Shown in pieces: positions 9,513 to 37,329 of a stretch of 63,699 nt of DNA. The notes below the pieces were generated by a model. That model saw only the letters and a list, made by a program, of their open reading frames with translations. It made no database searches and was not told the origin of the DNA. The position numbers and the translations under genes were made by a program. Positions within the stretch are counted from its first letter, which is position 1. The number at the start of each line of letters is the position of its first letter. The stretch spans positions 1 through 63,699 of the forward strand of contig JAHLWR010000022.1 in the NCBI GenBank assembly GCA_019057815.1. Reading direction: 5' to 3'. Source of the DNA: Candidatus Heimdallarchaeota archaeon (lineage in GTDB: Archaea > Asgardarchaeota > Heimdallarchaeia > Heimdallarchaeales > Heimdallarchaeaceae).

Positions 9513-9579
9513 ATGTGGCAATGATTTGACCGCTCCAGTCTGAATTTTGATGAACTCACGACGAAATGAGCCACCACAT
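9513..9579 (+). ncRNA. box C/D methylation-guide sRNA (snoRNA-like)
   Basis: Terminal stem GTGGC(9515-19)/GCCAC(9570-74), 3-nt bulge, C box ATGATTT (9521-27), D' CTGA (9540-43), C' TTGATGA (9547-53), D ATGA (9566-69); two 12-nt guides; TATA-like TTAAAAA at 9487-93. Confidence 0.85.
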
Positions 9580-18779: not shown

Positions 18780-18896
18780 ATTACCATAGAAAAAACGTTA
18801 GTAAACTAAACCGCGTTCTAGAAGAATTCTTTTGAATCATAATCTTTAAAACTAAAAGAAAGTAGAAGGGGAACAACAATATAGAAGGTACTCCAA

Positions 18897-19541
18897 GTGT
18901 CATCCCAACAAGGTTCAAAATCAAGCAAATCGAAAAGAGGAAAGAGTAGAGTAGTTGACAAGTGGAAGAGCAAATCTTGGTATGAGGTTGTGGCCCCCAC
19001 TTATATAATTGAAAAGTCATTAGGAGAAACACCAGCAAGTGAACCTGAATTACTTTATGGTAGAGTAATAGAAATGGCAAAACTAGGTGTATCAAAAGAT
19101 CTATATCATGATATTAACCTTAAAATCAGATTTAAGATTACCAAAGTTGAAGGAAATGTTTGTAAAACCGAGTTTGTAGGTCATGAAATAGCAAAAGAAC
19201 AAATTCGTTCTCAAATCAGAAGAAACCGCTCAAAAGTCGAAGCTATTCTAAATGTAGTAACAAAAGATAAGGGTAGATTAAGAGTATCTTCCATAATCAT
19301 CACACCAATAAGATGTGGTACAAGCGCTAAGAAAATAGTAAGAACAAAAATAGAAAGAGTAATTAAAGAAGCTGCAAAAGAACAAGAATTCAAAGAATTT
19401 GTTCAAAATATGGTTAATGGTACCTTGTCAGCAGCAATCAAAGAAGAAGTAAAGAAAATTTACCCACTGGTCATGGTAGATGTACGAAAGAGTAAAGTCC
19501 TAACCCTACCAGAAGGGATGGAAGTTTCAGTTGAATCTTAA
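18897..19541 (+). CDS. rps3ae: 30S ribosomal protein S3Ae (eS1)
   Basis: DKWKSKSWYEVVAP, GRVIE, KIYPL..V.VRKSKVL. Confidence 0.95.
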   Translation: MSSQQGSKSSKSKRGKSRVVDKWKSKSWYEVVAPTYIIEKSLGETPASEPELLYGRVIEMAKLGVSKDLYHDINLKIRFKITKVEGNVCKTEFVGHEIAKEQIRSQIRRNRSKVEAILNVVTKDKGRLRVSSIIITPIRCGTSAKKIVRTKIERVIKEAAKEQEFKEFVQNMVNGTLSAAIKEEVKKIYPLVMVDVRKSKVLTLPEGMEVSVES

Positions 19542-36441: not shown

Positions 36442-36936
36442 TTAATCATTCTTTTTCCACAATATTTTTCCACCTTGTTCCATTTTTGCGAGAACACCAG
36501 CTTCTTCCATTTTTTCCATAGATTTATAGAATTCTTCTTTTGAGAGAGGAGGTTTTCCTTGTTTCAACGCTGTAAATTGGCATGCTGCAAAGATAGCATC
36601 TTCAAACATAAATTTAGAAGAACCGTAAGTTTCCATTATCAAATCTTTATTGGGAATTTCTACAGTTTTTACTACTGTTCTTACTACGGTTTGTACCTTT
36701 TGATTCTCCTTTTTACCCGCATCAACTTTAGATGTTATCAAATCAACAATAAGAGTAGATAGGTTTTTCCCCCCAGCTTCAGCACTAAAACCATATAATT
36801 CCGCAACCCAATAAGAGGCGTGTAATATGAATGTGTCTACAGATTCAAATTCATTCTCATCTACAAGATTTTGCATGAAGTCCCAGAGTTTATCGGGTAG
36901 TTTTACTTCAACATTTTTCATAATAGAATACTCCAA
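36442..36936 (-). CDS. ribbon-helix-helix plus winged-helix DNA-binding protein
   Basis: N-terminal VEVKLPDKL...LV....FESVDTFI RHH pattern; C-terminal wHTH-like segment. Confidence 0.6.
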   Translation of the reverse strand: MEYSIMKNVEVKLPDKLWDFMQNLVDENEFESVDTFILHASYWVAELYGFSAEAGGKNLSTLIVDLITSKVDAGKKENQKVQTVVRTVVKTVEIPNKDLIMETYGSSKFMFEDAIFAACQFTALKQGKPPLSKEEFYKSMEKMEEAGVLAKMEQGGKILWKKND

Positions 36937-37053
36937 ATATAATATATAATTTTAGAGAAACAGACAAATATTTTAAGGTTTGTGCGCTAGCGTTAAAAAA
37001 AAATAAATTAGTTGAAACTTAATAAAAACTAAATAAATTGGTAAAAATATAAA

Positions 37054-37123
37054 GGCGTCCTGAGTAATTTCTATCATCTGTGCTGAAGACACACATCTAC
37101 GCCGTCTCAACCAGTCATTCGCC
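37054..37123 (-). ncRNA. double kink-turn, box C/D-like sRNA
   Basis: Minus strand: GGCG-AAT-GA-CTG...CAG-GA-CGCC terminal K-turn; internal TA-GA-TGTG..CACA-GAT-GA-TA K-turn; 12-nt spacer GTTGAGACGGCG. Confidence 0.65.
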
Positions 37124-37158
37124 AAATCAAAATAAGATGAAAGTCATGTTAAATTTTT

Positions 37159-37329
37159 CTATACTACTTTTCTACGACCGCGTTTATATATGGTCATTCC
37201 ACATTTGCCACAAGTCCACCGGTCATCGTGTCCTGCCATCCAAGTAAACTCAGCACATCTTTCGCATTCCTTTTTTACTCTCACTACTTTTTCCCCTTCT
37301 ATTTTGTAATGTTTGTGGGCTGCCACCAT
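37159..37329 (-). CDS. rps27ae: 30S ribosomal protein S27ae (eS31), not in ORF track
   Basis: MVAAHKHYKIEGEKVVRVKKECERCAEFTWMAGHDDRWTCGKCGMTIYKRGRRKVV; Zn finger; follows rps24e. Confidence 0.95.
   Translation of the reverse strand: MVAAHKHYKIEGEKVVRVKKECERCAEFTWMAGHDDRWTCGKCGMTIYKRGRRKVV

Follow-up and report, generated by a model that had tools for sequence, protein, structure and literature searches.

Among the described systems closest to the RNA gene reported here, sR44 of Methanopyrus kandleri (PMC4644070 supplement 1) carries, by our own parsing, the box pair AUGACUG/AGGA beside a complementary terminal stem; the M. kandleri set to which it belongs was derived from RNA-seq (Dennis et al. 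2015, PMC4644070). K-turns with a Watson-Crick pair at the 3b.3n position, C-G included, are unfolded in Mg2+ alone and fold on L7Ae binding, and ribosomal Kt-15, which has C-G at 3b.3n, is bound by L7Ae (McPhee et al. 2014, PMC4382518). With respect to the target, the D' guide of Ignicoccus hospitalis sR147 and the D guide of Pyrobaculum calidifontis sR03 (both PMC4644070 supplement 1) pair by our own derivation with the 5' strand of 16S rRNA helix 34, the shared target strand being E. coli ~1058-1068, and M. kandleri sR124 points to U1065 (Dennis et al. supplement). Helix 34 is already a known region of predicted archaeal methylation; it is the exact nucleotide and the guide gene that are new in the present case. 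Asgard lineages go unmentioned in a 2021 review of how archaeal C/D guides are conserved.

The window (the whole stretch of Candidatus Heimdallarchaeota DNA that was analysed, 63,699 nt) contains at positions 37123 to 37054 of the minus strand an unannotated guide RNA gene of 70 nt, counted from the first G of the terminal stem to its last C. We consider it highly probable that this gene specifies a separately transcribed box C/D sRNA of ~70 nt that would guide 2'-O-methylation of G1002 in the organism's own 16S rRNA. The parts of the gene are, in the order in which they would be transcribed:

37054-37123, minus strand: whole box C/D sRNA gene, matched by covariance model R1 at 74.9 bits
37120-37123, minus strand: 5' strand of the terminal (C) stem, GGCG, pairing with 37054-37057
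37112-37118, minus strand: box C variant AUGACUG, in which GA forms the sheared pairs and C and U pair with G and A of box D
37116-37115 opposite 37059-37058, minus strand: the two GA steps of the C/D K-turn, with an AAU bulge before and CUG/CAG after
37100-37111, minus strand: D' guide, 12 nt, with the invariant core UGAGACGGC at 37101-37109
37096-37099, minus strand: box D' variant UAGA, which is UUGA in two relatives
37079-37095, minus strand: internal hairpin UGUG (37095-37092)/CACA (37082-37079) with its loop, closing the C'/D' K-turn
37071-37077, minus strand: box C' variant AUGAUAG, with GAUA invariant and the 3-nt bulge before GA variable
37062-37070, minus strand: D guide or spacer, 9 nt, apparently orphan, varying in sequence and length among relatives
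37058-37061, minus strand: box D variant AGGA, assigned from sequence and alignment
37054-37057, minus strand: 3' strand of the terminal stem, CGCC, assigned from sequence and pairing
37040-37053, minus strand: T-rich 3' flank, a possible archaeal termination signal to judge by its letters

All of the structural elements that the initial annotation had placed on this strand (stem, bulge, opposed GA steps, two K-turns, spacers of 12 and 9 nt, and a TTTAAC element upstream) are present where it had put them. The terminal C/D K-turn has a Watson-Crick stem, a 3-nt bulge, and tandem G.A/A.G pairs. The second K-turn is formed by UAGA with GAUGAUA (GAU bulge, GA at 37075-37074, then UA) and is closed by a hairpin of 4 bp, which in genus g4 is replaced by a short K-loop. 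In this genome the spacer from C to D' is 12 nt and that from C' to D is 9 nt, so the guide spacer agrees with the ~10-12 nt of the class, the D spacer being short; among relatives the D' spacer measures 12-15 nt and the D spacer 9-12 nt. For archaeal sRNPs a spacer of ~12 nt is reported to be optimal, and the 9-nt D spacer of this sRNA is shorter. Runs of T occur within ~25 nt 3' of the sRNA in many relatives, though strict conservation is absent. The minimum free energy of the single sequence is no better than that of shuffled versions (z = -0.19), which is uninformative because box C/D RNAs normally fold in this unremarkable way.

At both gathering and permissive thresholds, Rfam returned no relevant family at the sRNA, and no C/D model among them, which supports the suggestion that such RNAs would be missed by standard annotation. 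A match to a fungal snoRNA model at 17.7 bits falls upstream of the sRNA and was regarded as chance.

Box C, AUGACUG, agrees with the consensus RUGAUGA at four of seven positions, and box D, AGGA, agrees with CUGA at two of four; like the lack of an Rfam match and the 9-nt D spacer, this weighs against membership in the class. These deviations are mutually compensatory: position 5 of box C forms C-G rather than U.U with position 2 of box D, and position 6 of box C forms U-A rather than G-C with position 1. Reading of the sequence confirms that both K-turns have a Watson-Crick pair (C-G in the first, U-A in the second) instead of the usual U.U. Ordinary box C/D K-turns share the behavior of those with C-G at 3b.3n, in that they do not fold in Mg2+ alone and do fold with L7Ae. 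The C-G at 3b.3n of Kt-15-type K-turns (PMC4382518) matches the terminal K-turn of this sRNA, although Kt-15 is a structural rRNA element while the Heimdallarchaeota RNA is a guide RNA. In M. kandleri sR44, C-G and U-A replace U.U and G-C exactly as they do here. That RNA differs in its guides, in its canonical C' (GUGAUGA) and D' (CUGA) boxes, and in its unrelated lineage, and the likeness of the boxes is probably convergent.

The initial annotation had proposed a lineage-specific family of guides conserving K-turn structure rather than box sequence. The box pair parsed as identical in M. kandleri speaks against this idea. The box sequences are, moreover, nearly invariant within the family, and a simple motif scan of the same genome found canonical or near-canonical box C/D candidates with terminal stems:

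Contig C39, 10355-10405, plus strand: box C/D candidate with fully canonical boxes
Contig C5, 47340-47387, plus strand: box C/D candidate
Contig C43, 34879-34935, plus strand: box C/D candidate

Because the same genome carries candidates with canonical boxes, the variant is a trait of this gene and not of the lineage. Compensated Watson-Crick substitutions in the boxes would cause guides to be missed by scanners that rely on box sequence.

Among 40 relatives searched at the DNA level, almost every genome of the same family proved to carry the sRNA segment. Orthologous copies from 24 loci were collected by nhmmer and manual extraction, and R1 was built from 21 of them. Within one Heimdallarchaeota family, R1 detects exactly one copy per genome in 29 of 30 genomes; in 16 genomes of three sister families it finds no homologue. 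The sole genome of the family without the RNA, G005 (89% complete), also has no detectable S24e gene; this locus is probably unassembled and thus provides no evidence of sRNA loss. Unfiltered R1 searches of the syntenic loci in one genome of family f4 and one of family f3 gave nothing credible, and a pattern for guides compensated to the 16S of the sister families gave chance-level matches only. When a guide-plus-D' pattern was applied across the class, matches outside the family were as frequent as with the reversed-pattern control, and a C box was absent from all of them.

A pattern scan of ~185,000 species genomes yielded 81 stretches that were then scored with R1. Strong scores were obtained for 28 of the 81, all from Candidatus Heimdallarchaeota-type MAGs or MAGs under a nearby label. 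Among these are AB_125 and the closed genomes of Ca. Heimdallarchaeum endolithica and Ca. H. aukensis. Approximately fifty bacterial pattern matches fail R1. One Shapirobacteria stretch reached 31.6 bits and was treated as a chance match, given that it reads like coding sequence and had been preselected by the pattern.

The RNA is 63-70 nt long among relatives and its indels are not multiples of three, which rules out an overlapping 50-aa ORF as the feature. The RNA core is invariant, whereas the neighboring S27ae protein is only 54-72% identical. The proposed structure is paired in 97.5% of alignment cells, versus 15-67% in slid controls, and is accompanied by three compensatory changes: the innermost (fourth) pair of the terminal stem is G-C changed to A-U in 3 genomes, the pair that follows the sheared G.A of the C/D K-turn is C-G changed to A-U in genus g4, and the first pair of the internal hairpin is U-A changed to C-G. 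These three changes stem from the two most distant genera (g2 and g4) and so represent few independent events. The most conserved segment is the single-stranded guide and not the K-turns. Judged from its sequence and that of its relatives, this is a genuine box C/D sRNA, and the double-K-turn guide RNA originally proposed is borne out by conservation, covariation, and complementarity to 16S rRNA.

The 9-nt core of the D' guide lies one nt upstream of box D' and is identical in 21 of 21 aligned sequences. Apart from the opposite strand of the gene itself, the 3.7-Mb genome contains its complement at a single site, which lies in helix 34 of the 16S rRNA (SSU 999-1007). The duplex between the D' guide and 16S rRNA comprises 10 contiguous Watson-Crick pairs (SSU 999-1008) with the N+5 position inside it. 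Against the organism's own 16S plus 23S, equal or better runs covering position 5 were obtained for 18 of 3000 shuffled and 28 of 3000 random 12-mers (~0.6-0.9%). Counted from UAGA, the N+5 rule predicts methylation at the organism's own SSU G1002 (contig C23, position 18893, minus strand). We take this nucleotide to be the counterpart of E. coli G1061 on the 5' strand of helix 34, going by the coordinates of the 1055-1070 and 1100 primer sites. To our knowledge, no organism has a directly mapped 2'-O-methyl group at the equivalent of E. coli G1061. The numbering also draws on the alignment printed by Dennis et al. 2015, which has an E. coli line and a ruler. All five genera of the family share the same 16S target segment, which differs in the three other families of the order.

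The guides of I. hospitalis sR147 and P. calidifontis sR03 pair with the same strand, but by our own count their N+5 nucleotide is the equivalent of U1062, one position 3' of G1061. They also differ in target sequence, which is GUCGUC or GUCGCC for these two RNAs and GUCUCA in the Heimdallarchaeota family. Both have canonical boxes (AUGAUGA, CUGA), come from hyperthermophilic Crenarchaeota, and show no detectable sequence homology to the Heimdallarchaeota sRNA.

Among relatives, the distance from box C to the core varies (12-15 nt) and that from the core to box D' is fixed at one nt, as expected if box D' serves as the ruler. This difference bears on what the pairing is for. It is conceivable, though in our estimation improbable, that the C/D-type RNP acts mainly as a chaperone which pairs transiently with the 5' strand of helix 34, either keeping the strand open or guiding the folding of the 16S 3' major domain, with methylation absent or incidental. 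Such an RNP would show the same complementarity and the same conservation, its catalytic efficiency could be reduced by the non-canonical boxes and the shortness of the D spacer, and chaperone roles for archaeal C/D sRNAs are proposed by Dennis et al. 2015 (PMC4644070). However, a core held at a fixed distance from D' while its distance from C drifts would be the signature of selection for a methylation ruler and not for pairing alone. The most likely function of the sRNA, on this comparison of sequences, is to direct 2'-O-methylation of 16S G1002 in helix 34 in one Heimdallarchaeota family.

The gene lies immediately downstream of a ribosomal protein gene on the same strand, and a predicted promoter is located upstream of it:

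37148-37160, minus strand: predicted archaeal promoter with purine-rich, BRE-like AGAAAAA and then TATA-like TTTAAC, assigned from its geometry and overlapping the rps27ae stop codon
37159-37329, minus strand: gene for ribosomal protein S27ae, 56 aa, the upstream neighbor (Pfam PF01599, E 5e-17)

The sRNA begins 35 nt past the rps27ae stop codon. Further upstream of S27ae, Pfam identifies S24e and DUF359, and two more upstream ORFs are presumably Spt4 and RpoE. The locus runs in the order S24e, S27ae, RNA, and an ORF of 164 aa in the 29 genomes that carry the RNA, and the synteny with S27ae is kept in 24 of 24 loci. The TTTAAC element occupies 37153-37148, its first T preceding the first G of the sRNA by 30 nt. 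Among relatives, the upstream motif A(T/C)AGAAAAATTTA(A/T) has the first T of its TATA element at -28 to -31 in 20 of 24 loci, and the motif is slightly altered in the other 4. This geometry fits a BRE/TATA promoter with a predicted transcription start at or just before the terminal stem.

The initial annotation had allowed that the element might exist only inside the 3' UTR of rps27ae and be a regulatory K-turn of the mRNA; there it would bind L7Ae and regulate the ribosomal-protein operon. The shared strand, the distance of 35 nt, and the conserved synteny would all suit such an element, and L7Ae-binding regulatory K-turns of mRNAs are known (PMC5539422, PMC6298567). We nevertheless judge this reading to be very unlikely. 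The interval that separates the stop codon from the RNA holds a conserved predicted BRE/TATA, spaced suitably for transcription to begin at the terminal stem. Conservation is highest in the guide rather than in the K-turns, the guide finds its one 10-bp match in 16S rRNA, and the known regulatory K-turns sit in 5' leaders. An mRNA regulatory element would be expected to lack a promoter of its own and to have the protein-binding K-turn as its conserved part, which is not the picture here. As to the 23S target that the initial annotation had placed near positions 1988-1999 (own LSU ~2088-2099, near E. coli 1990), this site, although the best in 23S, is extremely improbable, since its 9 Watson-Crick pairs and 1 G.U over 12 positions are interrupted by two mismatches that leave a longest contiguous run of only 7 pairs including a G.U, versus 10 Watson-Crick pairs at the 16S site, and since the 5' guide nucleotides it requires are not conserved in genera g2 and g4 while at the 16S site the invariant core pairs without a mismatch.

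Genes for the proteins of a box C/D RNP are present in the genome. Fibrillarin (PF01269, 303 bits) and Nop5 (PF01798, 220 bits) are encoded by adjacent genes on contig C4, and L7Ae (PF01248, 91.5 bits) is encoded on contig C38. In the assembly that we propose, L7Ae would bind both K-turns, the terminal (C/D) and the internal (C'/D'), and Nop5 and fibrillarin would then join the L7Ae-bound sRNA. The D' guide would pair with the 5' strand of 16S helix 34 (own SSU 999-1008), and fibrillarin would 2'-O-methylate the nucleotide opposite the fifth guide position upstream of D', which is SSU G1002. The bound RNP may also aid the folding of helix 34.

If this is correct, the guide predicts a helix 34 methylation limited to one Heimdallarchaeota family, and each verified guide helps to show where rRNA was modified around the archaeal-eukaryotic transition. 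It would otherwise be a routine housekeeping RNA and an ordinary addition to a known class, its odd boxes having published precedent.

Helix 34 is normally near-universal in sequence and lies beside the decoding and tetracycline/spectinomycin sites. In the family studied here, its 5' strand reads GUCUCAAGC (contig C23 ~18885-18900, SSU 995-1010; L069, L071, and L072). It differs again in each of the three sister families, which is unusual variability for a functional helix. In E. coli and seven diverse archaea, the strand is GUCGUCAGC or a close variant (Dennis et al. alignment). We tentatively raise the idea, to which we assign a low probability, that the guide arose with or in response to the family-specific rewriting of helix 34 (GUCUCAAGC as against GUCGUCAGC or close variants in other archaea), and that the sRNP would fold or stabilize the variant helix. 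In that event, a core functional rRNA helix would have undergone a lineage-specific change and a guide RNA would have co-evolved with it.

The second guide of the RNA presents a different picture. No rRNA match reaching 8 was found for the D guide in this genome, and the 17 distinct D guides compared with their own rRNAs gave few 9-bp runs, approximately the number expected by chance, with no shared site. The D guide appears, from its variable sequence and length, to be non-functional or free to drift, which would make this effectively a single-guide sRNA. In one subclade, represented by four loci (L004, L005, L014, and L015, in genomes G014, G024, G016, and G017), a D spacer of 12 nt includes AAAAGCGGG. 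These D guides form 9 contiguous pairs with SSU ~1332-1340 (own numbering), which may be a lineage-specific second target or a chance match.

The window contains another box C/D sRNA, at positions 9513-9579 of the plus strand, with boxes AUGAUUU, CUGA, UGAUGAA, and AUGA. Like the helix-34 guide, it is a box C/D sRNA of this genome with a box C that departs in part from the canonical sequence, and the two begin alike at the 5' end, but no homology between them is detectable. The initial annotation had treated them as relatives on the basis of a common GGC(G)AAUGA start. That start is real, although it consists only of the terminal stem and the beginning of box C, and R1 finds no second copy in the genome; the 9513-9579 RNA is thus an unrelated box C/D sRNA and not a paralogue.

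Two further observations concern the neighborhood of the gene. The 164-aa ORF directly downstream of the sRNA (window 36442-36936, minus strand) belongs to no Pfam family. It is syntenic in 23 of 24 loci of the family, L004 giving no match, and is 43-60% identical outside the genus. In the sister family f4, at locus L026 of genome G027, a tRNA-like sequence takes the place of the sRNA downstream of S27ae; this sequence seems to be interrupted, possibly by an intron.
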